IMG/VR virus record: IMGVR_UViG_3300044701_001189
Length of the DNA: 64,000 nucleotides
Direction: 5' to 3' (one strand)
Origin: an uncultured virus (IMG/VR IMGVR_UViG_3300044701_001189)
Lineage: Duplodnaviria; Heunggongvirae; Uroviricota; Caudoviricetes
The position numbers were made by a program, and so were the translations under genes. Below, one piece after another: positions 4,557 through 59,400 of this stretch. The notes under the pieces were generated by a model. The model made no database searches. It saw only the letters and a program-made list of their open reading frames with translations, and was not told the origin of the DNA. Position 1 is the first letter of the stretch; the number at the start of each line of letters is the position of its first letter.

Positions 4557-4569
4557 AATTAAACCAACT

Positions 4570-6419: not shown

Positions 6420-6847
6420 TGGAAGCTCCTAAAAAATTAAGTCGCCCAGTCTCATCAGACAAAGCAACACAGGCTATGGGATCTCTGATTTCAGAGATGC
6501 TAATGGCATCAATGCATACACATAAACTTCATCTTAAAGTAAGAAGCACTGGTTCTTATGCCCAGCATAAAGCGCTTCAGGAATTTTATGAAGGAATCCA
6601 AGATCAACTTGACACTCTTGCAGAGCAATATCAAGGTCATAAAATGTTACTTCTTAATATAGGAGAACCAGTTATGAAAAATATTTCTTTGCAGTCGGTG
6701 GAAAATTGTTTGGATTATTTAGATAAATTGTATACATTAATTAGTGAGACACAGTCAATGATGACATGTAGTTCTATCATTAATGAGATGGACAACACGA
6801 AAGGATTGATTAACTCAACCAAGTACAAACTTAAATTTTTGTCTTAA
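6419..6847 (+). CDS. Ferritin/Dps-like four-helix bundle protein (phage DUF5856-like)
   Basis: HKLHL...SYAQHKALQEFYEGIQDQLDTLAEQYQG ferritin-like H/E/D pattern; C-terminal YKLKFL. Confidence 0.7.
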   Translation: MEAPKKLSRPVSSDKATQAMGSLISEMLMASMHTHKLHLKVRSTGSYAQHKALQEFYEGIQDQLDTLAEQYQGHKMLLLNIGEPVMKNISLQSVENCLDYLDKLYTLISETQSMMTCSSIINEMDNTKGLINSTKYKLKFLS

Positions 6848-8715: not shown

Positions 8716-8732
8716 ACCTAAACAAACCAACT

Positions 8733-8864
8733 ATGACCTGTACTAATTGTGGTAAGCAAATTACTTGCGGTTGCCAAAAAAAGGTAGCATCCAACGGAAA
8801 GCAAGTATGTTCATCCTGCATCACTAGTTACGAGCAACAGATTAAAGAGAGTAAAGCACAGTAA
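8733..8864 (+). CDS. 43-aa six-cysteine micro-protein (metal-binding candidate)
   Basis: Hand translation MTCTNCGKQITCGCQKKVASNGKQVCSSCITSYEQQIKESKAQ*; AAACCAAC leader; stop 2 nt before the next ATG. Confidence 0.7.
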   Translation: MTCTNCGKQITCGCQKKVASNGKQVCSSCITSYEQQIKESKAQ

Positions 8865-30025: not shown

Positions 30026-31843
30026 ATGGCAGTAAGACACGGATACGGAAAGATAGCAGGAGCAGATGCATTAGTATTTGCATATGATACCGGTGATACT
30101 AGGAATAGTTATAAGGGTGAGCCTACGATTAACATAGTTACTAATCCTACATTTATAGGTACATCTGGAACTCAAACTCATGGTGTTAGTACAAACTGGT
30201 ATTTTAGTGGTGAAACAGGTGCTACAGGATTTAAGTATTATAATTCTTCTACCTCTCCTATACCTTTAAAGTTTCCAGGAGAAGGTGCAGTTATTACAAC
30301 AGGAGCTGGAGCAAACAATAGAAGAATCTATTATAATGGAACAGTAGAACCTAATACAACCTATACTTTAAGTTACTGGTTTTATAGCAGCAGTTTTGGA
30401 TCAATATCAAATTACTTTTTTACATACAAGGCAGACGGAACTGGAACCACAAGTCCAGCTTATAGTCAAGGTTTTACAACTGGACAGTGGGTATTTATAC
30501 AGCAATCTTTCACGACACCGGCAGACACAGGTAATACACGACAAGTAAACTGGGGTCCTGTTATATCAGGAAGTACTAATTCTCTGTTTGCTATGCAAAG
30601 ATTCCAGATTGAAGCAAAATCACACGCTACCCAATTTGTAAACGGTACCCGCTCTAGCACACAAGGTTTAGTAGACTTAACAGGAAATAGTTCTATTGAT
30701 TTAGCTAATGTATCATTTGATGCAACTGCACAAGTAACATGGGACGGTACTAATGACTACATTTCAATGACCGGGTTTACTCAGCCGGTTGATCCTAATA
30801 TTTATAGTGTAGAAGCAGTAGTAAAATTATATGCTCATAACCCAGGTACAAATATTGGAAGTGTTATTGTAAATAATTACAGCGCTTTATATGGTTGGAT
30901 TTTTTATTTAAAGGGCCCCTTTTCTTACTTAGGAATTAGACATCATGATGGAGGTTCGGGTGGTTATGATTTAGTTTATGGAACTGCTATTAATCTTAAT
31001 AACTTTTACCATATAGTAGCTACTGACGACAAAACAACAGTACGTTTATACATTAACGGAATACAGGTAGCTAGTCGTAGTAGTGCAACCGCATTAAATT
31101 ATTCCGGACAACCATTAATTGGACAATTTGGGGGTAATAATGCGGTTACCAATGGTGATATACCGATAGTAAAAATTTACAACCGATCATTAACTGCAGC
31201 AGAGGTTCAAGCAAATTTTAAAAACTATAGAAAACGTTTTGAAGGATTAGATTACTATTATGATAATACTACAGATGGTGGTAGATGGATTAGATTTTGG
31301 TGGTATACTGGAGTAGGTTGGCCTGGTCATGAAACAGAAGCTTTTGGTCATGATTTTGGAACTTTTGATTCTAGTAGCCATTATGGTTTTCAAAAACTAC
31401 CGGCAGGTCTTACTAAGAGTCAAGTAGAACTTCTTGCAAAAGACAGTAGTGGTAATATTTATAAATGGGATTTTGCAAATGCTTCTTCTACTGCACAAAG
31501 AGTTTGGGACTCAATGACTGCTGGTACAAAGGGTGCATGGGCAGAGGGTGGCGCCTTTAACCCAACTGTTATTGCTGGAGCATTTCATGGAGTACAACAA
31601 GATAGTTGGCAGTATCGAGTATCAGAAGGAGTTGCTTCTTTTATGTTAGATGATGATACTTGTGATTGTTATTCTACACTAAATGCTGGCCATGCAATGT
31701 GTGGTAGTAGCGGGTGGAATCAAACTTATGCTCAACCTGATGGTGCCTATCTTAGATATGGGGTAGACACACTCAATGATGGAGGATGTTTGGGTCCACT
31801 ACCTACTAGACAACTTGAACTTTATTACAGAATTAAACAATAA
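30026..31843 (+). CDS. LamG lectin protein with CBM-like insertion and fibrinogen-like C-terminal domain
   Basis: LVFAYDTG..SYKGEPTIN, WDGTNDY, LYING, IYNRSLTAAEV; tail begins YYYDNTTDGGRW, resembling YCDxxxxGGGW. Confidence 0.75.
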   Translation: MAVRHGYGKIAGADALVFAYDTGDTRNSYKGEPTINIVTNPTFIGTSGTQTHGVSTNWYFSGETGATGFKYYNSSTSPIPLKFPGEGAVITTGAGANNRRIYYNGTVEPNTTYTLSYWFYSSSFGSISNYFFTYKADGTGTTSPAYSQGFTTGQWVFIQQSFTTPADTGNTRQVNWGPVISGSTNSLFAMQRFQIEAKSHATQFVNGTRSSTQGLVDLTGNSSIDLANVSFDATAQVTWDGTNDYISMTGFTQPVDPNIYSVEAVVKLYAHNPGTNIGSVIVNNYSALYGWIFYLKGPFSYLGIRHHDGGSGGYDLVYGTAINLNNFYHIVATDDKTTVRLYINGIQVASRSSATALNYSGQPLIGQFGGNNAVTNGDIPIVKIYNRSLTAAEVQANFKNYRKRFEGLDYYYDNTTDGGRWIRFWWYTGVGWPGHETEAFGHDFGTFDSSSHYGFQKLPAGLTKSQVELLAKDSSGNIYKWDFANASSTAQRVWDSMTAGTKGAWAEGGAFNPTVIAGAFHGVQQDSWQYRVSEGVASFMLDDDTCDCYSTLNAGHAMCGSSGWNQTYAQPDGAYLRYGVDTLNDGGCLGPLPTRQLELYYRIKQ

Positions 31844-31848
31844 ACACA

Positions 31849-32202
31849 ATGAGCAGATTTCCTAACAGACGCTGGTTGATTATTTCAGCCGATGATGTAG
31901 AAAACATCAACTTTAATCAGGTACTAGAATCAGGACCTGATACACTTCGTTACTCTGTTGACGGTACTAAAACTTTTGTTAAGTATGAAGTTACCGTAGT
32001 AGAGCAAGATGAAGTACACACATTTACAGATCCAGAAACCGGAGAAGAGCAAACTACAACTGTACTTGCTGGAGTATACGGTAGACCAAGCTTTTATACA
32101 GAAGCTCTGATTGAGTATAATCACGAAGAGATTCTAGCTATTCTGGCTACTGAAGAATGGACCGCTCCGATGCTTGATACAGAAGTAGTTGCGGAAAATT
32201 AA
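31849..32202 (+). CDS. Small acidic protein, possible fibre assembly protein
   Basis: 117 aa; LRYSVDGTKTFVKY...EILAILATEEWT; follows the fibre/lectin genes. Confidence 0.45.
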   Translation: MSRFPNRRWLIISADDVENINFNQVLESGPDTLRYSVDGTKTFVKYEVTVVEQDEVHTFTDPETGEEQTTTVLAGVYGRPSFYTEALIEYNHEEILAILATEEWTAPMLDTEVVAEN

Positions 32203-32210
32203 TTTTCTTT

Positions 32211-32226
32211 GTATATTAGTAGTGTA
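32211..32226 (+). promoter_or_regulatory. Putative late promoter motif GTATATTAGTAGTGTA
   Basis: GTAWATTA copy overlapping the perfect 16-bp palindrome at 32220-32235. Confidence 0.55.
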
Positions 32227-32255
32227 ATTACACTAACAAATAAAACGTTTTAACA

Positions 32256-32618
32256 ATGGCAGTAACAGCTACAGTTGACAAGTTCGGTATGACATTTGCC
32301 GACGCTTATCACAAGATTAATAGACTTACTTATGAGTCTGTTGATTCTCAGAACTTGGTTTATGGTGAACCAGAAATTGATGAAGACGGTAACCCCGTTC
32401 CCCCTACTACTACAGTTGTATGGAGTAAGAAAGCATTCTTGAATTTTGAGGTTGCTACTTATGCTTCTGCTGCAACTCGTGAAGCACACGCTGAACCTAT
32501 TTACCGTGTTTACTACAACTTTGAAGCAGCTCTTGGTGCAGAGGAGGCAGATCTTCTTGCACAAGCTTACGGTCATCTGAAAGCTCAAGCTGGTTACGAA
32601 GACGCTGTTGACTGTTAA
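32256..32618 (+). CDS. Small protein, possible tail fibre assembly chaperone
   Basis: 120 aa; FGMTFADAYHKI...QAYGHLK...DAVDC pattern of fibre-adjacent small proteins. Confidence 0.45.
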   Translation: MAVTATVDKFGMTFADAYHKINRLTYESVDSQNLVYGEPEIDEDGNPVPPTTTVVWSKKAFLNFEVATYASAATREAHAEPIYRVYYNFEAALGAEEADLLAQAYGHLKAQAGYEDAVDC

Positions 32619-32628
32619 TTTATAGATT

Positions 32629-32898
32629 ATGTTAAAGAAGTTTTGGAACTGGTTGCTGGGTCAAACCACTATTGACGAAAAGATCGTTGCTAAAGTAGAG
32701 GAAGTAAAAGAGACTGTAGCAAAAGTTGAAGCTCGTGTTGAACGAGTAGTTGAAGAAACTAAAGACGTTGTTGAAGCGGTTAAAGAAGTAGGAGTACAAG
32801 CAACTCATGTTGCTGAGGCTGCTACTGGCAAACCACGTAAAGGACGTAAACCAGCTGCAAAAAAACCAGCAGCTAGTAAAAAAACTGAAAGCAAGTAA
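32629..32898 (+). CDS. Hypothetical protein with amphipathic N-terminus and basic tail
   Basis: 89 aa; MLKKFWNWLLG, V/E/K helical repeat, KPRKGRKPAAKKPAASKK. Confidence 0.55.
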   Translation: MLKKFWNWLLGQTTIDEKIVAKVEEVKETVAKVEARVERVVEETKDVVEAVKEVGVQATHVAEAATGKPRKGRKPAAKKPAASKKTESK

Positions 32899-32899
32899 T

Positions 32900-32907
32900 T
32901 ATATTTG
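32900..32907 (+). promoter_or_regulatory. Bacteroidota-type -7 promoter element TATATTTG
   Basis: Matches TAnnTTTG, 24 nt upstream of the 32932 start codon. Confidence 0.35.
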
Positions 32908-32931
32908 TCAAGTTACGTAACATTTTAAATT

Positions 32932-33234
32932 ATGTCTGAGAAAAACAAAATCCAACAAGAGGAACTTGAGAAAGTTCAAGGTCTAGTACAGGCCATCCGT
33001 GATTCAGAAGGAAACTTTTTTAAAGCTTCTGCCCAGCTGGTAGAAATTCAGAAAGTTCATTCTGATCTTTTTGCAGCAATGCAGAATGCAAACGGAGCAC
33101 TCCAAGCAGAAATGCAAGGTCTTAAAGAAACTTACGGTGATATCGTAATTAATCTTGAGACAGGAGAGTACGAAGAAGCACCTAAACAAGAAGAAGTTGC
33201 TGCACCTGAAATGACGGTTGTAAGACCAGAATAA
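32932..33234 (+). CDS. Small coiled-coil protein
   Basis: 100 aa, helical, with LKETYGDIVINLETGEY motif. Confidence 0.55.
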   Translation: MSEKNKIQQEELEKVQGLVQAIRDSEGNFFKASAQLVEIQKVHSDLFAAMQNANGALQAEMQGLKETYGDIVINLETGEYEEAPKQEEVAAPEMTVVRPE

Positions 33235-33257
33235 GAGCAGAACTTTCTACCTAACTG

Positions 33258-33295
33258 AATACCCTCTAGAAAAAACTAGGGGGTATTTCTTTTTT
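33258..33295 (+). terminator. Rho-independent terminator
   Basis: AATACCCTCTAG-aaaaaa-CTAGGGGGTATT followed by TCTTTTTT. Confidence 0.85.
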
Positions 33296-33308
33296 ATACA
33301 TATTATTG

Positions 33309-33324
33309 GTATATTATAGTGTAG
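33309..33324 (+). promoter_or_regulatory. Putative late promoter motif GTATATTATAGTGTAG
   Basis: GTAWATTA copy just after a terminator and upstream of 33373. Confidence 0.55.
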
Positions 33325-33372
33325 GGGTGTGGCCGTCCTTACTAAGTATTGATCAATACATTATTATAAACT

Positions 33373-35049
33373 ATGATTCCAGTAGCATCAAGCGGAAGCA
33401 CAGACGGATGTGTACCAGTATCATCCAACTGCATTATTTGGCAAGGACCGAACATTCCTTGCATTGACCTGTGCACAGGAGATTCTGTATCTGATGTAGT
33501 ATATAAACTTGCTACAGAACTTTGCAGTCTTTTAGATCAGACAAATCTTAACAATCTTGATTTGTCTTGTCTAAATCTTTCACCATCACAAACTCCTCAG
33601 GATTTTCAAGAGCTTACACAAACTATTATCGACGAGCTTTGTTCTTTAGATGGTCGTTGTACAACTCTTGAGGGTGGTTCTGGTGGTGGAGGTGGTTCTT
33701 CTACTATTAACGTTACAGTAGCTAACTGTCATATTGCAGAACTAGGAGCCGTTGAGGTAGCTGTTGACGTTTATGCTGAGTTTCTGGGTGCTAAGATTTG
33801 TGCAATTGCAACAAGCATTACCACACTACAGACTACAGTTAGTCAGCACACCACTCAAATTACAAGTCTTCAAACTCAGATTAACAATTTAGGATCTGCA
33901 ACTCTTCCTCAAGTAACGCCAACGTGTGTACTTCCTGCTGTACCTACAGATATGGATGAGGTTCTTATTGCTGTAGAGGCTCAGCTTTGCGACCTTAAAG
34001 AAGCAACTGGTGAAGCATTTGAGATTATAACAAGTACTGGCTATCAATGCGCTAACCTTACCAATCTTCCTAGACAGTCCGGTACTGGAACAATGTCAGG
34101 AATTGCCGGATGGAAAAATCCTGTAACAAATCTTGCAGACTCTGTAACAAACCTTTGGTTAACTGTTTGTGATATGAGAGCTGCATTGCAGAATGTAATT
34201 GATAACTGCTGCTCAACAGATTGCAATGATATTACTTTGGCTTTTGCTCCTTCTCTTAATGGTGCCGGTGATACGGTTACTATATCTGTTGCTGGTTCTG
34301 TTATTCCTTCTGGTTTCTTCAGCTGTAACCCTCTTGGTGCGATTCTTCAAATCACAGACACCTTTGGTGCAGTCCACACAGATTACATCAACGTTGCTAG
34401 CCTCCTTTCTACTTCTAGCAACTATACCTTATCTCTTGGTACTACTAGTCTTACTCAAGGTTCTACACTTTCTGTAAACATTCAAACTTGCTTTACTGAC
34501 GGTACTATTACTTGTGAGAACGCTTACAACTATACTCTTACAGGTACAGTTACTTGTCCTACTCTCACTTTAGATGGAACTCAAACTACAATTACTTGGG
34601 ACTTTACGCATGTTCTTGGAATTAATGTAAGTTACCAAGTTGATCTGTTGCAAAACAGTAGTGTTGTAGGAACAATGTACGTTATTAATGAACCCAACGG
34701 TGTTCAAACAGGAACGTTTACTGCTTTGAGTCCGGGTGTTGCTTATCAGGTTAGAATTACAGTTCTTGTTCCTGGAGCCACTCCTCAAGTTTGTACTCCT
34801 GCAAACATTACTACAGATTCTGCAACAGAGTACTACTGGCAAGTAAGTCCTTGTGATTCTGTAAATGCTCCTGTACCACCTAATAATGCTGTAAGAACAA
34901 CTGATCCTACAATCGGATTGAATGATGTTGTTGCTCTTACTGGTGCCGGATATCAAGGATATTGCTACACAATTACTGATGTAGGTACCTTCCCGAATGC
35001 GGTGTTGATTTCTCACCAGGTTAATGATTGTAATTCTTGTGAAGTTTAA
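33373..35049 (+). CDS. Cys-rich virion fibre-like protein (coiled coil plus Ig/FN3-like domains)
   Basis: 558 aa, 26 Cys counted; heptad segment ITTLQTTVSQHTTQITSLQTQINNL; FN3-like FTALSPGVAYQVRI. Confidence 0.6.
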   Translation: MIPVASSGSTDGCVPVSSNCIIWQGPNIPCIDLCTGDSVSDVVYKLATELCSLLDQTNLNNLDLSCLNLSPSQTPQDFQELTQTIIDELCSLDGRCTTLEGGSGGGGGSSTINVTVANCHIAELGAVEVAVDVYAEFLGAKICAIATSITTLQTTVSQHTTQITSLQTQINNLGSATLPQVTPTCVLPAVPTDMDEVLIAVEAQLCDLKEATGEAFEIITSTGYQCANLTNLPRQSGTGTMSGIAGWKNPVTNLADSVTNLWLTVCDMRAALQNVIDNCCSTDCNDITLAFAPSLNGAGDTVTISVAGSVIPSGFFSCNPLGAILQITDTFGAVHTDYINVASLLSTSSNYTLSLGTTSLTQGSTLSVNIQTCFTDGTITCENAYNYTLTGTVTCPTLTLDGTQTTITWDFTHVLGINVSYQVDLLQNSSVVGTMYVINEPNGVQTGTFTALSPGVAYQVRITVLVPGATPQVCTPANITTDSATEYYWQVSPCDSVNAPVPPNNAVRTTDPTIGLNDVVALTGAGYQGYCYTITDVGTFPNAVLISHQVNDCNSCEV

Positions 35050-35069
35050 TCTAACAACTATAAATAAAG

Positions 35070-35585
35070 ATGTCTTGTCATAATTGCGGATGTAATGATT
35101 CACATGTCTCGCTCCCAGCTAGTTATCAGCTGGGGACGAGTGCATGTCCTGGTGGTGAACGCTGTGAAGATTATATAGCTTCAGAGTGTGTTCTTTACAA
35201 TGGTGATGATCTTGTGGATTTTCCACTTGAGCACAATGAGCGTGTTGAGGTTACTTTAAAGAAACTTATTCTTTTACACCTTGATGCCGCTGCTCTTAGT
35301 GGTTCTAATGGAATTCATGCTCCCTATAATGTAGAGACGTTCTCTATAAAAGATACGGAAGCAGAGATTGAATGGGATGCAGTATCTAACGTAACAGGAT
35401 ATGAAGTAAGTATTAGAGTTGGCGCTCTAGGTACATGGACGAATGTTACTGTAGCAAATACAGCTACAAAATATAAGTTCATTAATCTTACACCCTCTAC
35501 TCACTATCATGTTAAGGTAACAGCAAAGGGAATTAACAGTTCAAGCTTTAGTTCTTTAACCATTGCGTTTACTACTACAGCATAA
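35070..35585 (+). CDS. Cys-rich N-terminus plus fibronectin type III domain protein
   Basis: APYNV...IEWD...GYEV...FINLTPSTHYHVKVTA FN3 signature; SECVLYNG echoes SNCIIWQG of the upstream gene. Confidence 0.7.
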   Translation: MSCHNCGCNDSHVSLPASYQLGTSACPGGERCEDYIASECVLYNGDDLVDFPLEHNERVEVTLKKLILLHLDAAALSGSNGIHAPYNVETFSIKDTEAEIEWDAVSNVTGYEVSIRVGALGTWTNVTVANTATKYKFINLTPSTHYHVKVTAKGINSSSFSSLTIAFTTTA

Positions 35586-35592
35586 AGAAATA

Positions 35593-35658
35593 AGTCACGG
35601 TTTGTTGGTTTTACGTGGCTGACAAGGAGAGCCTCGGCAGAAATGTCGGGGCTTCTCT
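35593..35658 (+). ncRNA. Two-hairpin intergenic element (candidate sRNA plus terminator-like stem)
   Basis: AGTCACG-[GTTTGTTGGTTTTA]-CGTGGCT, then GCCTCGGCA-GAAA-TGTCGGGGC. Confidence 0.45.
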
Positions 35659-35717
35659 GATTTAATAATACATTAAACAAATTGCCTTATATTGGTACAA
35701 CTGTAAATCAGTAAGTT

Positions 35718-36959
35718 ATGCAACAACTAATTAAAGATGTTTTAGCTACTATTAGGGGTAAAAGATCTAATGAAGAAAGTGCTCAGAGATTAGGACTTTC
35801 ATATGAAGAATATGTTGATCTTAAGAGAGACATTCTTCTTATCAAACAAATTGTGGGTGATGATGAGGACGCTGTTTATGCAGCATATAAGAATCTATCT
35901 AAATCGGATGATTCTAAAATAGAAGCTTCTTATAATTTAGATAAAGGAGAAGCAAGATTAGAAACAACATTAAGTTATGAGCCGCAGTCTCCAGATGAGA
36001 TTATAGCGGCTCTTAAAATTGATACAACTAAGTGGAAGTTGTCTCAATACTGGAACAAGCAAAAGTCTGACAAGTGGGTAGTATCAGCATTAGTAACAAG
36101 AATTAAAGCTACAGATAGTGAAACTATTATTAACTTTCTTAAGACTTGGTCTCCAAAACCCTACAAAGGTTTTGAGTCTGCTACCAGAAATAACAAAGCT
36201 TTGGAGAGTGCAGCTGCTGTGTTATCACTACAGGATATCCATTTCGGTAAAGAAGGTAATGAAGAAATTTCAGAAGACTTTCAAAATGCGGTTATAGATC
36301 TTATAGAAAGAGCTAGCAGTGTTGCAAATCTTTCTCAAGTTTATTATGTCGTTGGTGGTGATCTTTTAAATATGGATACGTTTACTGGTACTACTACAAG
36401 TGGAACGCCAGTAGACAACAATATGAAAGCTACAGAAGCTTATAAGCAAGCTTTCGATGCATTGCTTTGGTCTATTGGATATATTAAAGAGTTTTGTGAT
36501 ACACTGCACATTGTATATATACCAGGCAATCATGATAGACTAAGCTCATATCATTTAGCTCATGCCCTTTCAAAAGCTGTACAACATGACGATATTATTT
36601 GGCACGTTGAGTATGAAGAAAGAAAAGTCTTTACTTATGGTACAAACTTCTTTGCATTTGAACATGGTGATGTAAATACAAAGAATTCTTTGCTTGTTTA
36701 TGCTACTGAGTTTTCATATGATTGGGGCTGCACTGTATATAGAACACTATATACAGGACACCTTCATACTAAGAAGAGAATTGAGTACATAACAGAAGAT
36801 GAGCAGACTGGATTCATGCTAAAGATTCTGCCTTCATTATCTAGAACGGACTATTGGCACTACCATAATAAGTATGTTGGAAACCGTAGAGCGGGTGTAA
36901 TTGATATCCATGATCCTAATAAAGGTTTAATATGTGAGCTTGTCTGCATTTTAGACTAG
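35718..36959 (+). CDS. Calcineurin-like metallophosphoesterase with N-terminal extension
   Basis: Metal-binding motifs in order: DIHFG, GGDLLN, PGNHD, EHGD, TGHLH. Confidence 0.85.
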   Translation: MQQLIKDVLATIRGKRSNEESAQRLGLSYEEYVDLKRDILLIKQIVGDDEDAVYAAYKNLSKSDDSKIEASYNLDKGEARLETTLSYEPQSPDEIIAALKIDTTKWKLSQYWNKQKSDKWVVSALVTRIKATDSETIINFLKTWSPKPYKGFESATRNNKALESAAAVLSLQDIHFGKEGNEEISEDFQNAVIDLIERASSVANLSQVYYVVGGDLLNMDTFTGTTTSGTPVDNNMKATEAYKQAFDALLWSIGYIKEFCDTLHIVYIPGNHDRLSSYHLAHALSKAVQHDDIIWHVEYEERKVFTYGTNFFAFEHGDVNTKNSLLVYATEFSYDWGCTVYRTLYTGHLHTKKRIEYITEDEQTGFMLKILPSLSRTDYWHYHNKYVGNRRAGVIDIHDPNKGLICELVCILD

Positions 36960-36978
36960 TATCGCTGGTGTTTTTTTC

Positions 36979-36994
36979 GTAAATTATAATGTAC
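36979..36994 (+). promoter_or_regulatory. Putative late promoter motif GTAAATTATAATGTAC
   Basis: GTAWATTA copy upstream of 37004. Confidence 0.55.
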
Positions 36995-37003
36995 TCCACA
37001 TAA

Positions 37004-37588
37004 ATGAAAGAGTTTAAAGTACCTGACCTAAAAGCTGCAAGATATCGTTCTACAGCTTTGACGTTTGACAACGCTAAGACTCATAAAGAGTTTCAAGCTA
37101 AGTACCCACACCATTCAGATATGGAGTCACAGACGTTCTCTAAAATAATTAAAGTGTTTAACGGTTTGATTTGGCGTGCAGTTGTAGAAAATAGAGATGG
37201 TGTTCAACTTCCAGAAAGTCTTGGACATCTTTTTATTGGTACATGCCCAGCACCAAAGAAGACTAACATCAACTTTCATGCAAGTGCACAACACGGTGTA
37301 GCTGTACAGAATAGAAATTGGGAAACAGATAATAAGATTGCTAAAATCTTTTATACCAACTACTATGAAAAGTATCGTTTTGCTAATAGAGAGTTATGGA
37401 CTTTTCAAGCAGTTAGACAGTTTAAAAGAACAGTGGCAAAAGAGTATCCGGAATCATATCAACGATATGTTGTTATGAGCCCGGACTTAAGAATATCTAG
37501 TCTATATCGAAGCATATTAAAGAAGGAATACTTCCTTAAAAAAGCAGAACAACAGATAGAAGACTATGACGAGTTTAAAATAGATTGA
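37004..37588 (+). CDS. IHF/HU-like DNA-binding protein (conserved crAss-like tail-module gene)
   Basis: GVQLPESLGHLFI resembles the HU/IHF V.L..FG.F motif; basic; precedes the tail ring genes as in crAss-like phages. Confidence 0.6.
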   Translation: MKEFKVPDLKAARYRSTALTFDNAKTHKEFQAKYPHHSDMESQTFSKIIKVFNGLIWRAVVENRDGVQLPESLGHLFIGTCPAPKKTNINFHASAQHGVAVQNRNWETDNKIAKIFYTNYYEKYRFANRELWTFQAVRQFKRTVAKEYPESYQRYVVMSPDLRISSLYRSILKKEYFLKKAEQQIEDYDEFKID

Positions 37589-37589
37589 C

Positions 37590-38261
37590 ATGACAACCAT
37601 AGGTGAAGTTGTATCAAGGGTAAGAAATCAAATCAAATCGGTAAGGCAAGATGCTTTTATTACCGATAGATACCTCTATAGCCTGATACTCAAGTACACA
37701 GCGCTGTACCTTAGAAGACAAGATTCAGAGAATAAGCTGATGAAGTTTAACTCTGTTTTTCAGACTTTACCTTTTGTAGAGCTTATAGATGTAGATAAGG
37801 TAGAGGCACACTGCTCTGGAATTAAGAGTGGTATTACTATTAAGCGCACTAAGGAAAAGCTTCCAAATTTTATGCAGGGTTATTGGGGACCTATCATTAG
37901 AACTGTGAGTTCTATTGATACCTCAATTGAGCTGCAACCTACACACCCTGGTACATATACTTCTATGACCAAGACTACCAGCTTTAAGTATAACAATACT
38001 AAGTATTACTGGTTTCTTAATGGTTACTTGTATATGCCCAACATTCCATGGGATGCAATTCTTATAGAGGGCATCTTTGAAGATGATGTTACAAAGTGGA
38101 ACTGCGATCCTAAAGATGACTGTGACCCTCGTCAATCACAACCTTTTAACGTCCCTGACTTTCTCTTTGCAGAGATTGAGCAAAACGTATTAAAAGATAT
38201 CATGAGTACTGCAAGCTATCCTTCAGATGGTGAGCACAATAAACAGAACATTGCAAGATAA
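37590..38261 (+). CDS. Tail ring / tubular protein
   Basis: 223 aa; MTTIGEVVSRVR N-terminus, YYWFLNGYLY, EGIFED; gene order. Confidence 0.6.
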   Translation: MTTIGEVVSRVRNQIKSVRQDAFITDRYLYSLILKYTALYLRRQDSENKLMKFNSVFQTLPFVELIDVDKVEAHCSGIKSGITIKRTKEKLPNFMQGYWGPIIRTVSSIDTSIELQPTHPGTYTSMTKTTSFKYNNTKYYWFLNGYLYMPNIPWDAILIEGIFEDDVTKWNCDPKDDCDPRQSQPFNVPDFLFAEIEQNVLKDIMSTASYPSDGEHNKQNIAR

Positions 38262-39127
38262 TGGCACGCTACATTAACTATAGATCTTTTGATCAGCTCC
38301 TTGAGGATGTAAGTGTAGACTTTGGTAGCTACAGTCTTGAAGGAATGATTGAACCACAGCAGCTTATTAAAGTTGCTACAAGAGTTAACTACGATCTTGG
38401 TCTTAGAATACACTCTCAAAAAGAGCATTTACTAGAAATCGAGAACTATAAAGCCAAGCTTCCTTCTGATTTTTATGTTCTTAACTTTGCTTATCAGTGT
38501 GGTACCTATGAAGTAAAGGAACCAATACTAAGCGGTACAGAGATTGAGGAAAGAATTCTTGATCCAGGTGACGTAGTATTAAACGATGATGATTGTCCGG
38601 TAGATAGTTCTGTATGTATGACAGACTGTGGTAACTACTATCAGCTTATTCAGAAAACAAAGTTTGAAACCAGAGTTTACAAAACTTTTGGTTCTTTAAG
38701 AATTAAGTCTGGAAGTAGTTTGGATCCTAGCTGTCCAAATAAATATACAGGTCCTGCAGATAGTGCAGAAATTAAAGATGGGTTTTTAAGAACTCCTTTT
38801 AAAACCGGTAGTGTTTACATTAACTACCAGGGTGCAATGGAAGATGAGGATGGTAATCTATTAGTTGTAGATCATCCTATGCTTAATGAATATTATGAAT
38901 ATGCAATTAAGCAGCGCATTCTTGAAAACATGTACTTTGCCGGAGAAGACGTAGTTCAGAAAATGACACTTATTGAGCAGAGATTAAGAGCTGCTAGAAA
39001 TAATGCTTTGTCTATTGTTAATACGCCAGACTTTGCTGAAATGCGCAAACTGTGGGAGGTAAATAGAAAAGCACAATACCACAAGTATGTAAATATGTTC
39101 AAGAGTTTTCCTGTTATACAAAACTAA
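38261..39127 (+). CDS. Tail tubular protein (P22 gp4-like ring)
   Basis: 288 aa; IENYKAKLPSDF, IKDGFLRTPFKTGSVYINYQG...DEDGNLLV; immediately before the stabilisation protein. Confidence 0.65.
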   Translation: MARYINYRSFDQLLEDVSVDFGSYSLEGMIEPQQLIKVATRVNYDLGLRIHSQKEHLLEIENYKAKLPSDFYVLNFAYQCGTYEVKEPILSGTEIEERILDPGDVVLNDDDCPVDSSVCMTDCGNYYQLIQKTKFETRVYKTFGSLRIKSGSSLDPSCPNKYTGPADSAEIKDGFLRTPFKTGSVYINYQGAMEDEDGNLLVVDHPMLNEYYEYAIKQRILENMYFAGEDVVQKMTLIEQRLRAARNNALSIVNTPDFAEMRKLWEVNRKAQYHKYVNMFKSFPVIQN

Positions 39128-50681: not shown

Positions 50682-53453
50682 ATGGCAAGTTACCTAACAC
50701 AGCCCTCAGTAGCTAAGATTGAGCCCTTCAGACCCAACTGGGATTTTTTACTGAAGGTGGCTAGCACTGCTCAGCAGCGCTATGATACTAACTTGGCTAA
50801 AATTGAAAACCTTTACGGTACTCTTCTAAACTCTCCTATGAGTAATGATTCTAACATTGAAAGAAGAGATCAATATTTTAAGCAAGCTCAAGCTCAGATA
50901 AATAGAATTGCATCTATGGATTTGGCAATGCCAAATGTTGTAGAGCAAGCTACTAATGTATTTAATCCTATTTTGGATGATGAATACATTCCTTATGATA
51001 TGCAGTGGACGAAGGTTTTTAATAATCAGTTATCTTCTGCAGAAAGATTTAGAAACTCTACAGATCCTAATGAAAGATCTAAGTATTGGGAAGCTGGTGT
51101 AAAGGAGCTAGATATTATTAAGCAGAAGTTTAAGAGTTCACCCGTTGATCAGATTAAGAATATCGGTGTTCCTAGATATACTGAAAAGGTAGATGTCTTT
51201 ACAAGGGCAAATGAAATTGTAAAGCAGCAGTTTGGAAGTGATGCTATGATTATGCCTTCAAAGCAAGGTGGATATCTTATACATACTTCTAATGGTCCCA
51301 TTGCATATGGACCGTATAAAATGGCAATTAGTGCAGCTCTTCAAAACGATCCTAACGTCAGCGCTATGTACAGAACAATGTACAATGTTGGTGAACATGA
51401 TTTTGTAAATCAGAACTTAGGAGTTTACGGCAATGAAGATGCAGCTAGACTTGCTTATGCAGAGCAAATCATTTCTGAGAATGAAGGTCTGGTTCAACGA
51501 GACTTTTTTGGAAAGATTGTTAGCAGTCGTCAACAGCTTAAAGATGATATTGAAGGTCATGAAGCTGTGATATCTAAGGATGGCGTTGTACCAGGATCTA
51601 ATGATCACGTTGAATATCTTAGAAAGATCCAAGCTTTAACTAGTCTTGATAATCAAGAACAGAGTGAGCAGGTACAAGCTATTATTACTCCAGCTGCTAA
51701 TATGCAAGAGATGCGTAATAAAGCATTGAGCACATTTTATCTTAATAATCTTAACTCTCAAGTTGAGAATGCCGCAAGAGCACAAGCTTATAAAGGTTAT
51801 CAAGTTAAAATGGAAGAGGATCAGTTTGCTCTTAACCAACAGAAGTTTGGTTTTGATCAGCAAATGAAACAGCTTGAATTTAGACTTGGTATTCAAAAAG
51901 GTTATCTTGAGCATCTTTGGAAGATGGATGAAGAAGCTGCTAAAGGAACAGGTGGAACTTCAGGTCTCAATCTTGGTGCTCTTGTTGGATCTGGTAGTGG
52001 CGTTATGGTAAGTCCAGAAGCTCCAGGTGGACTTGCTGTTGATGAAATGCCAGCCGGTGCAGCAAACGAGCAAGCTTTAACTAGTTATGAAGGGCAGATT
52101 CTTAAAGATCAAGCAATGTATCTTCAGAACTATAGTAGAATACTTGGCAGGGAAGCTGTTGAATATAATGGTCAGGCTGTTCCCTTTAAAGATTTAAACG
52201 CTCTTGCAGCTACTCCAGAAGGTCGTCAGTTTATTATGAATGCTTATTTAGAAGCTCATAATAACTCTTCAACCAATCCTGCAATTAAGAATAATGCTGA
52301 TCTTATGACTCTACGTTCTAAGATTCAAAGAAACGTGGCTAGTTATAGTAAAGTTTCATCAGAAGTTGATGAAGCTGACATAAATATTTGGAACAGTTTT
52401 GCTTCACAACAAGAGAATGCAAAGAAGCTTGCAAACGCTACTGCTGGTTCAGCATTTATTAACAGATCAACAGGTCGCCCTGTATCACTTGCTGAATATA
52501 CTGCAGCTTACGCAAGAATTGAAGGAGAGTCTATAGAGGATGTTAGAGAAGATGCTGCTGATGAGTACAATAGAACTCTAAAAAATTATACAGAGCACTA
52601 TAATAAGTACATGACTTCAAGCGCTAGACAAAAACTATTTGGTGGTGTAGAAGGTCTTGGTGCAGGAAGCGGTATGTATCCTGGATATACAACTGTATTT
52701 AATGGTCAGGCTCTTAATCCTGATGCAGCCAAGATGATGAATGAGATGGCTCTTACTTTACAGAATGCTAGAAGATCTGGAAATGCGATATTTCAGTCTG
52801 GCAATCTTGCACAGATTGGTGATAATGATCCTGGAATGGCGGATGTGTACCAAAGAGTAATTGCAGATATTGTTGCTAGACAAGGTAAGGATGCCTCTGG
52901 AGCTCCTATATTCTCACTACAATATCAATCAGTTGCTGGAGGAGATCCTGCAAAAGCGGGTTACACACTTACTCTTGATAGTGAATATGCAAAGAAATGG
53001 GTAGGAGATCCTGACAAAGGATTTCTTATTGATGAAGAAAGTGACTTTGCTAAGAATCTCCAGTTTTCTATCTCTTTTGATAAAGACTTTGATCAAAGCT
53101 CTTATAGATACTCTAACCAAAAGGTTGATGGAGTTGAAGCTACTATGAGACAAAATCCTATGGGTACTTACTATCAGGATGGTCCTTACAACTCATCTAT
53201 TTATATGAGAGAGTTGCTTGATGGTAGTGTAGAGGTTACTCAAGCTTTTGGAGCTATTGATCCATCTACAGGAAAAGTAATAACTAACCGTTCAAGTCAG
53301 GTATTGCCATCTCTTGTTCCAGGTCAGTATGAAGCTATTCTTGATCAGTGGACTGCTAACTTACAGGCAGCATCAAAAATTAACGAACAAGTTGAAAGAA
53401 ACTTTAAAGGAAATAACGGCGCAGTAAAAGATAAAGGCACACTAGTAAAATAA
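50682..53453 (+). CDS. Putative ejection / cargo protein preceding the virion RNAP
   Basis: 923 aa, largely helical; PFRPNWDFL..V....QQRYD N-terminus typical of this crAss-like gene; gene order. Confidence 0.55.
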   Translation: MASYLTQPSVAKIEPFRPNWDFLLKVASTAQQRYDTNLAKIENLYGTLLNSPMSNDSNIERRDQYFKQAQAQINRIASMDLAMPNVVEQATNVFNPILDDEYIPYDMQWTKVFNNQLSSAERFRNSTDPNERSKYWEAGVKELDIIKQKFKSSPVDQIKNIGVPRYTEKVDVFTRANEIVKQQFGSDAMIMPSKQGGYLIHTSNGPIAYGPYKMAISAALQNDPNVSAMYRTMYNVGEHDFVNQNLGVYGNEDAARLAYAEQIISENEGLVQRDFFGKIVSSRQQLKDDIEGHEAVISKDGVVPGSNDHVEYLRKIQALTSLDNQEQSEQVQAIITPAANMQEMRNKALSTFYLNNLNSQVENAARAQAYKGYQVKMEEDQFALNQQKFGFDQQMKQLEFRLGIQKGYLEHLWKMDEEAAKGTGGTSGLNLGALVGSGSGVMVSPEAPGGLAVDEMPAGAANEQALTSYEGQILKDQAMYLQNYSRILGREAVEYNGQAVPFKDLNALAATPEGRQFIMNAYLEAHNNSSTNPAIKNNADLMTLRSKIQRNVASYSKVSSEVDEADINIWNSFASQQENAKKLANATAGSAFINRSTGRPVSLAEYTAAYARIEGESIEDVREDAADEYNRTLKNYTEHYNKYMTSSARQKLFGGVEGLGAGSGMYPGYTTVFNGQALNPDAAKMMNEMALTLQNARRSGNAIFQSGNLAQIGDNDPGMADVYQRVIADIVARQGKDASGAPIFSLQYQSVAGGDPAKAGYTLTLDSEYAKKWVGDPDKGFLIDEESDFAKNLQFSISFDKDFDQSSYRYSNQKVDGVEATMRQNPMGTYYQDGPYNSSIYMRELLDGSVEVTQAFGAIDPSTGKVITNRSSQVLPSLVPGQYEAILDQWTANLQAASKINEQVERNFKGNNGAVKDKGTLVK

Positions 53454-53472: not shown

Positions 53473-56400
53473 ATGGCTGATATGACTAATAGCTTGGGTG
53501 GTCCTACTTCTCTGACAAACGCGTATGGCGTTAGTGCTCCTAGTGGAGCAGAAGCTGGACTTGAAAGATCGCTCAGAATGCTTGAGCAGTTTAAAGGTGA
53601 CAATCCTCAATGGTTTTCTACCAGTGGAGGTTTTACCAATGATCCAGTTAAAAATATTGAATCGCTTGCAAACAAGCCTTTTGATTTAAGTCAGACTTAT
53701 AGGGCACCAGGCTACCAGGAACCAATCACCTTTGGTAAAGATGTTGTCAACTTTGATAGATACTATAGTCATCCATCTTTTAACAAGCTAGGTTTCAATC
53801 CTCTTAGAGATAATGAAACCTTTTATAATGAAAACTCTCACTGGACTGAGGACTATGCAAGAATGGGTTCCCAATTTGGGAAACTTTTTGGTGCTGGTTT
53901 TGTAGGCACCTATGAAACAATAGGTGATATTTTTCAGGGTGAGAACTTTTCATACTCTGATGATATCTCTAAGACCTATGAAAAAGCTTCTAACATTGGA
54001 AGCAGTACTCGTGGTGGTTTAGTTGGTTTTGGTAATAACCTCCTGCTAAACTCTGCGTATACGTTTGGTATTATTACCGACTACTTTACTACAGAATTAG
54101 CTCTTGCTGGTCTTACATATCTAAGTGGTGGTACAGCAGCTCCAGTTACAGGTGCAGCAGCGGTTGGTAAAACAGCACAATTTACAAAAGCTCTTGGTGG
54201 TGTTTGGGATATATACAAAGCAAGTAACAGCGTAAAAAAAGTTACTAATGCTATTGACGCCGCACAAGATGTAACTAAACTGAAAAGATTCTGGCAGAGC
54301 ACTGTTTCTGGTCTTAATCCACTAGAGAATACAATGCAGTTTGCAAAAGAGCTTGCTGCTACTGAAGGTCAGATATACAAGATGACTAATCTTGCTAAGA
54401 CTACCAGAGGTTTTGGTGCATTCTATAAAGACGTTAAAGCTGCCTCAATGACTTGGTCTGAGTCAAAGCTTGAAGCAGGTATGGTAGAGCAAGAAGTTAA
54501 AGACGAGCTTACCAATAAGTTTATTCAGACAAATGGAAGAGCTCCTGTGGGCCAGGAGATGCAAGATATTGAAGAGAAATCGTATGCTGCTGCAAATACT
54601 ACAGCATTAACTAACGCTCCTCTAATCTATGCAACAAACGAAATTACTTTTGGTACTCTGTTTAAAGGTTATACCCCTTTAGGAGACGTAGCTGAGATTG
54701 CTGGAGATGGTGTTCTTGGTAGGTTTACTAGGAAAGCTGCAGAGAAGGGCAAGATTCTTTATGAGAAGAAGCCTGGAGCATTTAAAGCTGCTGTAAATTT
54801 TGCAAAGAAACCTTCATTAAAAGGCGCCACTGGGTACTTAACTACATATGCTGCAGGCAACTTCTCTGAAGGTATTCAAGAGATTGGTCAAGAAATTATA
54901 TCAGCTGCAGCTAAGGACTATTATACGCATGACGTAAATGATCCGGGTTTTGCTTCAGCTGCAAGTTGGTCTGCAAGTCTCGGAAGAGCAACTAAAGAGC
55001 AGTACAGTGCACAAGGTTTAGAAACATTCCTTTCTGGTTTCTTAATGGGTGGTGTTGTTACTCCAGTAACTAAAGGAGTTTACAATGTTCCTAATCTTAT
55101 TTCAAGGGTATACGATCCTAAAGCTTATCAAGAAAAGAAAGCTGAAGAGGCAAAAAGAGATCAAAAGATTCTAGATTCTCTTAATGAGGTAGGTAATGAC
55201 GTAGATTCATTCTACAAAAGTCTTGCTCAAGCATTTGGTAGAGCAAGAAAGATTGGAAATACTGCGATGGAAGCTGGCTTAAATAACGAGCAGCTTGCAC
55301 AACAGCACGCAAAAGACGCTGCTCTTTTTGAAAAGGCGCACATGCTGATGAGAACTGGTGCTATGAATGAGCACATTAAGTATCTGTCAGATCTTAAGAA
55401 GCTTTCTTTCCAAGAAATTAAAGAGGCTATTCCTCAACTTTCTTCTAGAACAGAAGAGGAAACAGTTGCTAAGCTTGACAAGGTTATCAATAGAATGCAG
55501 GAGCTTGCAAAAGACTTTATAACTATTGAGAAAGAAGTTAAGAATCAATACAAACCTTCTCTTTATCAGAAAGGAACTCCAGAGTATGAGGCGGAGGTTC
55601 ACTCTTATCATGCAGTTGAAGAAGCAAAGCGTCAGATGCTTTTCTACAAGCACGCTATTAAGAGACACTTTGAAAGAAATGAATCTATCATTAATGAAGT
55701 AAAGGCTAATCCTGCTGTAGCTAAGGCTGCTTACAGTGACTTTGCTGTAATGTTTGATGAGGATTCGCTTCTTAATGAAATTGAAGTTCTTAAAAAAGAA
55801 ACTCTTCTTACTACAGAAGACGCTGAACAGCAAGCAATAATTAATAATAAAAAAGAACGTCTTGCCATTCTTCAAGAAATGAAGGAGGGCATTGATAAGT
55901 CTAAGACTACTAGAAAAGACGGATCTGTATATACAGATAGAAGAAAGCTTAATTATATACAGCCTGCATACGAGAAGTTCTTAGAGCACCTTGCAAAAAC
56001 TACAGGGTCTACTATAGATCCTCAAAATGCAAGAAAGACTTTGTCTTTGATCTTTGATAGCAAGACACTTGTTTCAAGTGCTGCAGATCTTCAAGGTATT
56101 TATAATATTCTTGCGGATCCTGCAGGGTTTAGAGATGCTCAAGTTAGAATTTCTGAAGTTGCAAAATCGCTTTTTGAAGAAAGAAAGACTCAGTCTCAAG
56201 CAATTGTTGATAGAGTTAATCTAAACGAAAAGCAAAAAAGCTTTATCGAGAATCTTGCAAAAGCTGGAATTGTTATAGCTCCTGAAGAGATTGAAGCTTT
56301 TCTAGAAAAGAACATTCGTCCTTCTAAGTTCTACTCTATAAGATCTACTGATTTAATTACACCAGAAGATCCAGAGTATATGATTGCTATGGTTGCGCTT

Positions 56401-59400
56401 GCTGCGTATTACAATCAAGCAAAAGAACAGCAGAAGGGTAATGAAGGAGATACTGTTGCAGCAGAAACAGCTGCATCAAATGCACAAAAAGCTGAAACGG
56501 TTAGTGAGAATTTAAGTGAAGCTGTAGATAATCTTGACACCTATTTTCAGAATGCCATCTACGCGTTGTACGATAGTGCAACACGAGGTCAAGAGTCTGC
56601 AATGAGTTTTCAAGAGTGGGAGCTTACACCGGCTGGAGAGAATGCAATTAGAGCATTTACTGAAATTCAGGAGATGTACAATGCCGCTAATACTGCAGAT
56701 TCTGTAGCTCAGTGGGTTGAAGACAATAAAGGCAGCTCTAGACTTAGAGATACTCTTATTAAGTACAATCTAAATATTGGTGCAGTTAGTGGATTGCTTA
56801 CAGATCCTAATGTATTTGTAAATGAGACTCGTCCTGCTGGTTATGATTTAGAGACAACTAAAGGAGATAATGGTTTGTTTATTCTTAGTACTACAGTAGG
56901 AACAGATGAGCAGGCAACAAAGGTTTACTATGTTGTAGATAACAGATCAAACTTTATTGGAGATAAGTCTTTTAAAACTCTTGATGAAGCTCAAGCTGGT
57001 AAGAGAGAACTTGCAGAAAAGTATGCGGCAGAAAGCCAGAAGTTTCTATTTAATGGTGTAGCTTTCTACGCTGGTCAAGTTGTAAACAATGGTAGAGGCG
57101 TAACCTATAAGGTTCTTACAACTAGAAAGGAAGCACAGAAAGCTATTAAAGATTCTGAGACCAATCCTGCGATAAAACCTATCCTTAGATTACAAGTTGT
57201 TGAAGACTTAAATAATGCCCAGCGTGTAGGTACTGTAGAAGAAAAGACTTTTGTAAGTGGCAATCAAAGATTGATTCCTGGTCAGTACAAAGATTTTGAA
57301 AGTAATGAGCAATACAAGATTCTTGACCTTTGGAAGTATACCAAGATTTATGCAGCTCGTACAGAAGCTGATCTTGCTGAAGCTGCAAAGACTCTCGATA
57401 AAGCTACTGATGATCCTGAAGTTAGATCTCTTGCCGATAAGCTTGCTGAAAAAAGAGTAAAAGAACTTCTTGAAAATACTCCTGCTGAGGAGCTCCTTTC
57501 AAGAATGGGAGTGAAGATTACCAAGAACAATAACTGGTCAGAAGGATATCTAACAGTAGATGGTAAGTTCAATCCTCACGTTAAAGAACGCAAAGAAAAG
57601 CTTGCAATTGGAATTACTCTTGACGGTGAGGTTATAGGTTACTCTAGAAGTATTCAGAACGTTCAGTTCTTAGATGCTGATGGAAATACAATCCCATACT
57701 ATGAAGCTTTTAAAAATAGCTTAATTCTTAGAAGAGTATTTAAGTATCAAGGTGAGGGTGCAGCTCCAATTGCAGAGCTGAGAAGTAAAGCTAATGCTGC
57801 GTTTTATCAGGCATTTAGAATTTATGAGCTTGCAAATGAAGCACTAGCTGGTCAAAATGAAGTAGTTCTTTCTCCAGAAGAAACAGCAAAAGTCTTTGGA
57901 TCTTTTGTTATTGGTGATGGAGCTTATGCTTTTGCTGAGCCAAATGAAGTTGTTACTATGGACCAACTTCAGTACTCACAGATTGAGGGTGGTTACTACA
58001 TTATAGATAGAGCAAGCACCGCAAAAGGTGGAGATGCAAGAGGTACTAAGAAAACAGGTTTTGTAGAACTTACTACCCTTCGTGGAAAAGCTAGAGAAGC
58101 AGCAAAAGCAAAAATTGATGCAGCACTTGAAGCTTCACCAAACCAGTTAGATAATAGAGGTAGATACATTCTTGCTGTAGAGATGCCTAACGGTAAGGTA
58201 CGTTTTGTATCACTTAAGGCACCTGTAGTAGATGAAGCTACTCAAACAGGATTACTTGAAGGTCTTGCAACTCTTGCACAAGATGCTGTAGCTAACGTTG
58301 ATAATGCTACGTATACTAACACAGAGGCAAACAAAGACATCATTGATAGCAAGATGTACATTGCTCTTGGTGCTGGTCAGCACGCCAAACTCAGAGTAAA
58401 CGCATCCGGTCAACTTACTCTACAACTTGCAGATAACCTTGCAATGAAAGGAGCTTTTGAAATTAATAGCTCTAGAGATATTGTTGCAGAACCCTTTGAA
58501 AATATGCAAGATTTTGTAGATCATCTTAATGATCTCGTCTCTAACAATAGAGATGTTATTAAGAACTACAAGATTAAAAACATTCAGTTTAAGACATCTT
58601 CTTTTAGAACTAGCATTTCTCAAGGTGCTCAGGCTAAGCAGCTTGTTGATCTTAACATGGAGACTGATGTTAAGCCTGAAGTTGTAGGTAATATTTCATT
58701 TAGAGTCAAGCCTCTTAGTAAAGAAAAGCCTGCAGTTGAAGAGTCTGAAAAGCAAGAGAAAGCTGAACAGTCTGGTTTTGGAGATATCAGAGCTATTCTT
58801 GAAGAGAAAAGAAAGAAAGCAGAAGCTGAACAAGCTGCAAAAACAGATACTGGCGCTATTGATGCTTTGTCTGCCTTAGGTCAACAGTCAGCAAACATGG
58901 CTCCTCCCCAAGAACCAGCAACTCCAACTGAAGGACTTGTTCAAAGAAGAGCTGAGCTTAACAGATCATTACAGGATATTAGAAACACAGTAAGAAAAGA
59001 ACTTCTTGCATCTGGTGTTCCTGCTGCCGAGGTAGTTGCTCAAAGAGACTCTGACTCTAGAGTAACCAGTATACTTACTGAACTTGCAGAAATTGAAGCT
59101 AAGCTTAACGCTGGCTCTGCTAAAAAGGTAATTCGTAAACCTGTTAAACAGTACGCTGAAGAAGACGCTACTAAAATTGATGAGTTCATTGATTGGGTAA
59201 CTAAGAATCTTCCAAGAAACATTAGCGTACAACAAGTACAAACTCTTCAAGATAATCTTCATAATGGTAACATCACTGTTGGTGAGTTTATTATGAGTAT
59301 TACTGCTCTTGGTACAAATATCCCAGGGATTAAAGGAAAGATTAGAGTTGGTGCATCTACTCCATTTAAGTACCATGAGGCTTTTCACGCTGTATTTAGA

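Follow-up and report, generated by a model that had tools for sequence, protein, structure and literature searches.

The 3' untranslated region (UTR) of a tail gene in a crAss-like phage carries a two-hairpin element whose loop is complementary to a motif just upstream of the start codons of three genes: the scaffold-position gene, a gp33-like post-capsid gene and a gene for a small Cys-rich protein. At the level of sequence, comparison of relatives established the structure, strand and conservation of the element as well as the specificity and position of its predicted targets. The reading to which slightly more than even credence is given is that the element belongs to a phage-made 3'-end antisense RNA, which would damp the translation of non-virion assembly genes as a late feedback. 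A trans-acting sRNA had been proposed in an earlier note on this DNA; the loop, motif and minus-strand checks of that proposal were passed, whereas covariation between loop and targets is suggestive rather than proven, and repression, as opposed to tuning or activation, is what we infer.

Genomic context and predicted fold of the element

In the window, that is, the whole 64,000-nt stretch that was analysed, all long genes were found on the + strand, and their content is that of a crAss-like phage structural module (portal, capsid, ring proteins, tail genes and an open frame of 3517 codons). This assignment was based on the major capsid protein gene (2811-4424, +; Pfam Crass_capsid, PF23898, E 2e-27), portal and ring PHROGs, a gp33-like gene and a crAss-like gene order. 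No lysogeny genes were seen in the 64-kb window. A Dps/ferritin-like gene (6419-6847; PHROG "starvation-inducible transcriptional regulator") lies inside the head module and is shared with some relatives only. The frame of more than 3500 codons at 53473-64000 had no Pfam match above the cut-off; judging by position, its product is probably a virion RNA polymerase or a cargo protein. A recoded region after 53453 was ruled out because a single open frame of 3517 codons was found there.

The element is located in a 132-nt gap between an FN3-domain tail gene (35070-35585, +), in whose 3' UTR it sits, and a metallophosphoesterase/exonuclease-like gene (35718-36959, +), which served as the downstream synteny anchor. 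As described in the earlier note, a 7-bp stem (35593-35599/35614-35620, with one U-G pair) presents a 14-nt loop (35600-35613, +; GTTTGTTGGTTTTA), and this seed hairpin (35593-35620, +) is followed by a second hairpin with a GAAA loop (35626-35658). Together with a U-tail that is weak in the window (GATTTAAT), the second hairpin resembles an intrinsic terminator (35626-35666, +) shared with the upstream mRNA. At least five U within nine columns after this hairpin were counted in 65 of 72 aligned homologues. The 77-nt element folded into exactly these two hairpins, with a + strand z-score of -4.1 that beat all 200 shuffles, whereas its minus strand (z -1.2) folded no better than shuffles. When a 141-nt context was folded, the minimum-energy structure paired the loop elsewhere, and the centroid was mostly open at the loop. 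Rfam 15 gave no matches in the window and four weak matches, far below the gathering threshold, around the element.

A cis-encoded antisense arrangement does not apply, since the same strand carries the predicted targets, at a distance of 27-34 kb. Upstream of the element, TATATTR was scattered (13/56) and no promoter was found to be conserved, which implies that a putative RNA would be processed from the mRNA or would act from the intact mRNA end. A search for RNA data sets over 31000-39000 listed none. Three sequence runs and one metatranscriptome yielded contigs only, and none of those listed spans the hairpin; at 90-95% identity, they probably derive from a relative's DNA and weigh neither for nor against a transcript.

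Between the terminator and the next gene, a promoter-like sequence (TATATTGGTA, 35688-35697, +) was noticed, and TAnnTTTG, which we take to be the Bacteroidota promoter consensus, is present at this place in relatives. Another sequence, TATATTAATA (1524-1533, +), upstream of the scaffold-position gene, looks like a late promoter. The pattern TATATT(A/G)(A/G)T(A) recurs in intergenic gaps of the window at 1524, 32212, 35688, 45945 and 50665, and in relatives TATATT was found in 73/100 scaffold leaders compared with 10/109 post-capsid and 2/85 Cys-gene leaders. The motif is a candidate late promoter of the clade. Late genes of crAss-like phages are transcribed by the host polymerase, according to one report (10.1101/2020.03.07.982082).

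Conservation of the element and covariation of its stem

Conservation was studied in the best 80 of 228 loci around the downstream (35718) gene. The loop core in a stem before a terminator was present in 79 of these 80 loci, the remaining one having only 63 nt of upstream DNA. Of 50 records from other clades, 46 had a match at E <=1 to a model built from the first clade, and the top 30 inspected were all the element. After follow-up, the element was located in 45 of the 50 records, among them each of the 20 with a completeness of 90% or more; it was not found in G080, G089, G093, G105, G109 and G060, each of which is 31-77% complete. The family core, the 11-mer UUUGUUGGUUU, was exact in 71/109 genomes, and capsid proteins across the carriers are only about 26-28% alike. 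Genomes usually carry one copy of the element. G085 may have another, degenerate one (L413, G085:4690-4769), which lies outside the structural module. Model R2 missed the elements of the phages phi17:2 and Lbo-JY46 described below, and a generic script scan, which returned up to two off-site matches per 37-50 kb, also missed Lbo-JY46. Because known copies escaped the searches, all absences of the element are soft.

Conservation of the loop in relatives had been suggested as a check, and it revealed a nearly fixed loop on a covarying stem. In a sequence-only alignment of 48 copies, two-sided changes were observed at 8/8 pairs of the upper stem. Stem covariation was 0.429 compared with 0.256 for shuffled alignments (reached by 0/500, the shuffles ignoring relatedness) and at most 0.225 for slid ones. 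The value was 0.756 for 72 copies aligned by fitting to the model, a procedure biased in its favour. The terminator helix was 96.6% paired, with two-sided changes at 10/10 pairs, in an alignment likewise fitted to the model. RNAalifold returned no consensus structure on a plain MAFFT alignment; pairs were counted on the named structure because registers shift between subfamilies.

G-U cells outnumbered A-C cells by 52:15 and 70:9 in two counts, and therefore the + strand RNA is the selected molecule. The minus strand has the sequence of the leader motif, and it might accordingly function as a decoy RNA that shows this motif in its loop or as the leader of a small minus-strand gene. Such a role is considered extremely unlikely: the G-U and A-C counts favour the + strand, the minus fold does not beat shuffles, the + strand is the one with the terminator U-tail, and no conserved minus-strand ORF was found. 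The leader of a minus-strand gene, which the earlier note had itself named as an alternative, fails on the last point, since an ATG within 25 nt was present in 11/56 distinct loci and the ORFs were mostly of about 10 codons.

Target leaders

The motif AAACCAAC occurs in nine copies in the window compared with 2.63 expected, and 0/100 shuffles reached nine. Of the five plus-strand copies, three stand ahead of the ATGs at 1561, 4570 and 8733, where the motif had been reported in the earlier note; the other two are inside genes. The first of these genes is the scaffold-position gene (1561-2784, +), for which a scaffold role is presumed from position and composition; the second is the post-capsid gene (4570-5580, +), homologous to crAss001 gp33 and to a 294-aa phi14:2 protein; and the third encodes a 43-aa Cys-rich protein (8733-8864, +). 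The target site is located directly before the scaffold-position ATG (1553-1560, +; AACCA in 96/100 homologous leaders), before the post-capsid gene (4561-4568, +; 104/109) and before the Cys gene (8724-8731, +; 75/85). The three genes had been called head genes; the scaffold-position, gp33-like and 43-aa Cys genes should be specified instead, and the capsid gene, used here as an internal negative control, mostly has a leader without the motif. The second, 11-nt complementary site that had been reported inside the 1561 gene (1573-1583, +) is indeed present and gave the best duplex among the 43 start regions scored (-15.3 kcal/mol). By eye and uncounted, it is absent from most relatives.

The suggested count of the motif near starts showed enrichment there, and the genes at which the motif is conserved are precisely the three that had been named. 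In eight genomes, some of them partly covered and all analysed with simple ORF calls, AACCAA was found within 30 nt of 44/745 starts compared with 62/5529 internal Met codons. Among the 64 gene clusters common to at least four of these genomes, AACCA was present in every member only for the three genes (8/8, 8/8 and 7/7; next best 3/6). At 121 distinct loci of other clades, AACCA preceded 64/69 scaffold-position, 115/121 post-capsid, 3/74 capsid and 2/113 ring genes, and at a further 140 loci, a set that overlaps the former in part, it preceded 109/122 scaffold, 125/132 post-capsid, 72/75 Cys and 5/130 capsid genes.

Several leaders of relatives deserve mention on their own. In L237 and L251, the scaffold and post-capsid leaders are without AACCA, and the contigs end before the element's place. 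L081 (G002, about 6655, minus strand) has two AACCA copies in the leader of a 539-aa gene that was judged chaperonin-like from its N-terminus and that lies on the strand opposite the late genes. L445 and L449 have two UUGG cores in the loop region and tandem ACCAACCA repeats in their leaders.

The target leaders were nearly unstructured (-3.1 to -6.4 kcal/mol), and with the loop they are predicted to form a short helix of 7-11 bp (about -6 to -15 kcal/mol). When the three targets were co-folded with the 77-nt RNA, the gains were -12.7, -11.3 and -8.6 kcal/mol, compared with -3.5 for the capsid, -3.0 for the ring, -7.6 for the 6880 and 0 for the 35718 gene, values that are rough because the co-folds open the seed stem. 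By duplex score, the three targets were not always at the top within their genome (ranks 1 to 27).

The motif started at a median of -12 in scaffold, -12 in post-capsid and -11 in Cys-gene leaders, with a peak at -14 to -10, which in all three genes is the position of a Shine-Dalgarno (SD) sequence. Scaffold protein is needed in many copies. Both points would suit an RNA that pairs and activates, either as a surrogate anti-SD or adaptor for ribosomes whose own anti-SD is sequestered or as a shield against decay from the 5' end, as would the report that host ribosomes, although they do not recognise SD sequences, are able to use an extended helix on rpsU (PMC13000457). Against such activation, the nearly unstructured target leaders offer nothing to open, the window duplex reaches the AUG and the second site lies in the first codons, the capsid gene is mostly without a site, and the alignment profile shows, apart from the loop, no conserved part of the RNA to which a ribosome could bind. 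Activation is therefore regarded as improbable, and we know of no precedent. A somewhat smaller chance is given to a private "SD" (AACCAA at about -12) that, together with the small RNA reading it, might steer or gate host ribosomes at chosen assembly mRNAs.

The product of the 4570 gene was compared with known proteins. It matched crAss001 gp33 (22%, E 3e-4), and its confidently predicted structure (pLDDT 95.5) gave a fold match to the 294-aa phi14:2 protein (E 5e-9); it is the conserved post-capsid protein of crAss-like phages. No PDB match was obtained by sequence or fold at E 0.001, and the atlas clusters were unnamed. The model had no PDB match over its full length, and its likeness to part of RecA is weak and confined to about 64 columns (E 0.18 or worse). 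In GTDB genomes, there was no relative of the protein and no match to a subfamily DNA pattern. The annotation of crAss001 gp33 includes a dsDNA-binding domain, with which the weak and partial likeness to RecA chains agrees, and AAACCAA/TTGGTTT might thus be a dsDNA site for a phage protein (for example, in autoregulation by the gp33-like protein) that has one orientation at the three leaders and is inverted before the terminator. This explanation is held to be very unlikely, since a DNA site needs no covarying, G-U-rich stem, the motif keeps a constant distance from the AUG, and a promoter-like motif is mostly missing near two of the three genes.

The element in cultured phages

The cultured Cellulophaga phages phi17:2 and phi4:1 were found to have a 10-bp stem with the loop UUUUUGGUUUUU, followed by a terminator. 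Their element immediately follows the tail-fibre gene and is itself followed by a gene homologous to the 37590 gene of the window (E 5e-18); in phi17:2, it lies in the gap between gp047 and gp046, at about 51312-51426. The post-capsid leader is AAAACCAAAAA and the scaffold leader is AAAAACCATAAAAAA. On the window leaders, the window loop scored -11.4, -9.6 and -9.7 kcal/mol compared with about -6.5 for the phi17:2 loop. The order was reversed on the phi17:2 post-capsid leader (-9.8 for the phi17:2 loop compared with -7.1 kcal/mol for the window loop), and the two loops tied on the phi17:2 scaffold leader. AACCA was present in 7/27 leaders of phi17:2, that of the capsid gene included; therefore, target specificity is looser in this phage. 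In phi4:1, the two main target genes are without the MS/MS virion note carried by their neighbours, and the same is true of phi14:2.

The isolate "Leptolyngbya phage Lbo-JY46", whose capsid protein is 28% identical, has a stem with the loop UUUGUUGGUUG before a terminator in the syntenic place. It keeps the hairpin, and its leaders match only with a bulge. In 5/8 relatives inspected, the element was within 10 kb of the capsid gene. Neither element nor motif was found in the inspected stretches of phi14:2, crAss001, csAssE-Sib and Fpv3, which are soft negatives given that the searches missed known copies. The record of L160 (PP438436.1) names a cyanobacterial host; its promoter-like motifs TAnnTTTG, SD-less leaders and crAss-like gene order suggest that a co-cultured Bacteroidota species is the host.

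Joint changes of loop and leaders

Because the core pairing letters hardly vary, the match between loop and leaders is mostly co-conservation and not covariation. When the loop base 5' of UUGG was G, the opposite target base was C in 123, U in 47, A in 55 and G in 3 cases; when it was A, the counts were C 1, U 27, A 21 and G 2. The raw link between loop base and target base was 59/74 vs 2/16 genomes (Fisher p 7e-7), after hand correction of four loops, exclusion of two scaffold leaders (one with a miscalled start, one truncated) and removal of 2 duplicates (92 to 90). On the tree, the link came mostly from one clade (6 independent pairs, median p 0.63), in whose neighbourhood the pattern fits a change from G-C to G-U to A-U that occurred once. 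Leaders of the A-loop genomes were somewhat C-poorer (0.074 vs 0.103), and drift to A+T could therefore have moved both sides.

In 14/20 events, variant loops were a better fit to the leaders of their own genome than to those of the nearest consensus genomes (sign p 0.12, Wilcoxon p 0.006), in a test that also rewards mere target decay. The 20 events were grouped by hand; three variant genomes were unassigned, and the Cys-gene start of G090 was off frame by a base. When variant and consensus loops were compared on the variant's own leaders as a gene average, the variant loop was better in only 4/20 events and worse in 15.

Single genomes provided further cases. In G090, the loop AGUGGUUCC (UGGUUCC) is accompanied by the scaffold leader GGAACCA, the other two leaders being without a site; a search for its close relatives returned only G090 itself, and so the evidence for this two-base swap comes from a single genome that has both parts. 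GGAACCA is also present in both leaders of L262, whose contig ends before the element. G088 and L461 combine the loop UUGGUUGGU with the leader ACCAACCA, and in L270 and G064, U replaces G opposite A. Scoring of swapped duplexes favoured the own loop for 4/5 leaders. Coevolution of the loop and the target leaders is thus suggested by these sequence changes.

The same data bear on whether the hairpin acts in cis only, as a protein-binding, processing or stability signal by the terminator, in which case AACCAA would be a separate translation-enhancer or protein motif and the complementarity would come from a U-rich loop and A-rich leaders. The hairpin always adjoins the terminator, the tight position of the motif fits a ribosome-related signal, the occurrence of at least two motif copies in 25/100 scaffold, 44/109 post-capsid and 19/85 Cys-gene leaders fits a protein site, and tree-aware covariation was not significant by sign tests. 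However, a GG/CC core is matched and not U and A alone, the capsid and ring leaders are also A-rich yet without the motif, and hairpin and motif are missing together in the inspected stretches of phi14:2, crAss001, csAssE-Sib and Fpv3, soft as these negatives are. Considering also the matched changes in G090, G088, L270, L461 and phi17:2, action in cis only is thought to be unlikely, if still worthy of attention.

Proposed mechanism

The preferred reading, an antisense RNA acting in trans, may be outlined as follows. The transcript of the last tail gene would end in the two-hairpin module, whose first hairpin would hold a U/G-rich seed open in a loop of 11-14 nt, while the second, as a terminator, would set and protect the 3' end. 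The acting RNA may be a 3' fragment released by processing, or the intact mRNA may act through its end. We infer that in vivo the RNA would act in trans on the scaffold-position, gp33-like and small Cys-rich mRNAs, pairing with the AAACCAA(C) located at about -14 to -5 in each. The duplex would cover the leader (-14 to -1) and block ribosome loading; such a block is expected because Bacteroidota ribosomes start on unstructured A-rich leaders without SD pairing. In PMC6847099, initiation in Bacteroidota is described as SD-less and tuned by low structure and upstream adenines. As tail transcripts accumulate, assembly proteins outside the virion would be turned down late, and the capsid gene would be spared.

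Comparison with known systems and significance

CpxQ, DapZ and SroC are 3'UTR-derived base-pairing sRNAs. The element is like them in that its terminator is shared with the upstream gene and a short seed is predicted to pair near the start codons of several mRNAs; it is unlike them in being phage-encoded, aimed at the phage's own assembly genes and provided with a seed in a hairpin loop. It is a candidate for an RNA that works like a 3'UTR-derived seed-pairing sRNA. To our knowledge, Bacteroidota are without Hfq. GcvB, a host sRNA with its own promoter and a need for Hfq, uses a G/U-rich seed, not loop-held before a terminator, to silence C/A-rich, often repeated translation enhancers before start codons. 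The element shares the G/U-rich seed and the C/A-rich, often repeated elements upstream of starts, whereas it is phage-encoded, its seed is loop-held before the terminator, and no conserved promoter of its own was found. The plasmid RNAs CopA/CopT and RNAI are loop-initiated antisense RNAs, cis-encoded and fully complementary to one target. As in these, a variable stem presents a fixed loop for the first contact; in contrast, the complementarity here is 7-11 nt and extends to three distant mRNAs.

CisR of Vibrio cholerae is reported to be a further 3'UTR-derived base-pairing sRNA (PMC13250501). Among virus-side RNAs, SviR of PLE lowers the translation of ICP1 targets, one of them a putative structural protein (10.1101/2022.04.08.487710), and PreS (10.1101/2024.10.31.621285) and VpdS and OOP (PMC12197685) are further reported phage or satellite trans sRNAs. 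The element resembles all four in the tuning of translation in trans, which is predicted here; it differs in having no Rfam family match and in that phages with about 26-28% capsid identity have retained a single seed and a three-gene regulon. Abundant long intergenic non-coding RNAs of unknown function are reported to be made by phi14:2 (10.1101/2020.03.07.982082); they are long, early and located elsewhere in the genome, and the hairpin element was not found in phi14:2, a soft negative. A literature search, outside which most subscription papers lay, found no description of the element. The loop words were absent from the examined tables of Fremin et al. 2023 (PMC10690425; 10,006 alignments), five further supplement files of which may contain the element.

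The finding bears on how crAss-like phages set the ratios of their assembly proteins in hosts without Shine-Dalgarno control. Since the carriers phi4:1 and phi17:2 are cultured, the pattern seen in metagenomes is testable at the bench. If the proposed reading is true, the element would represent a virus-borne RNA-RNA regulatory circuit of unusual depth and would provide a natural probe of Bacteroidota leaders.
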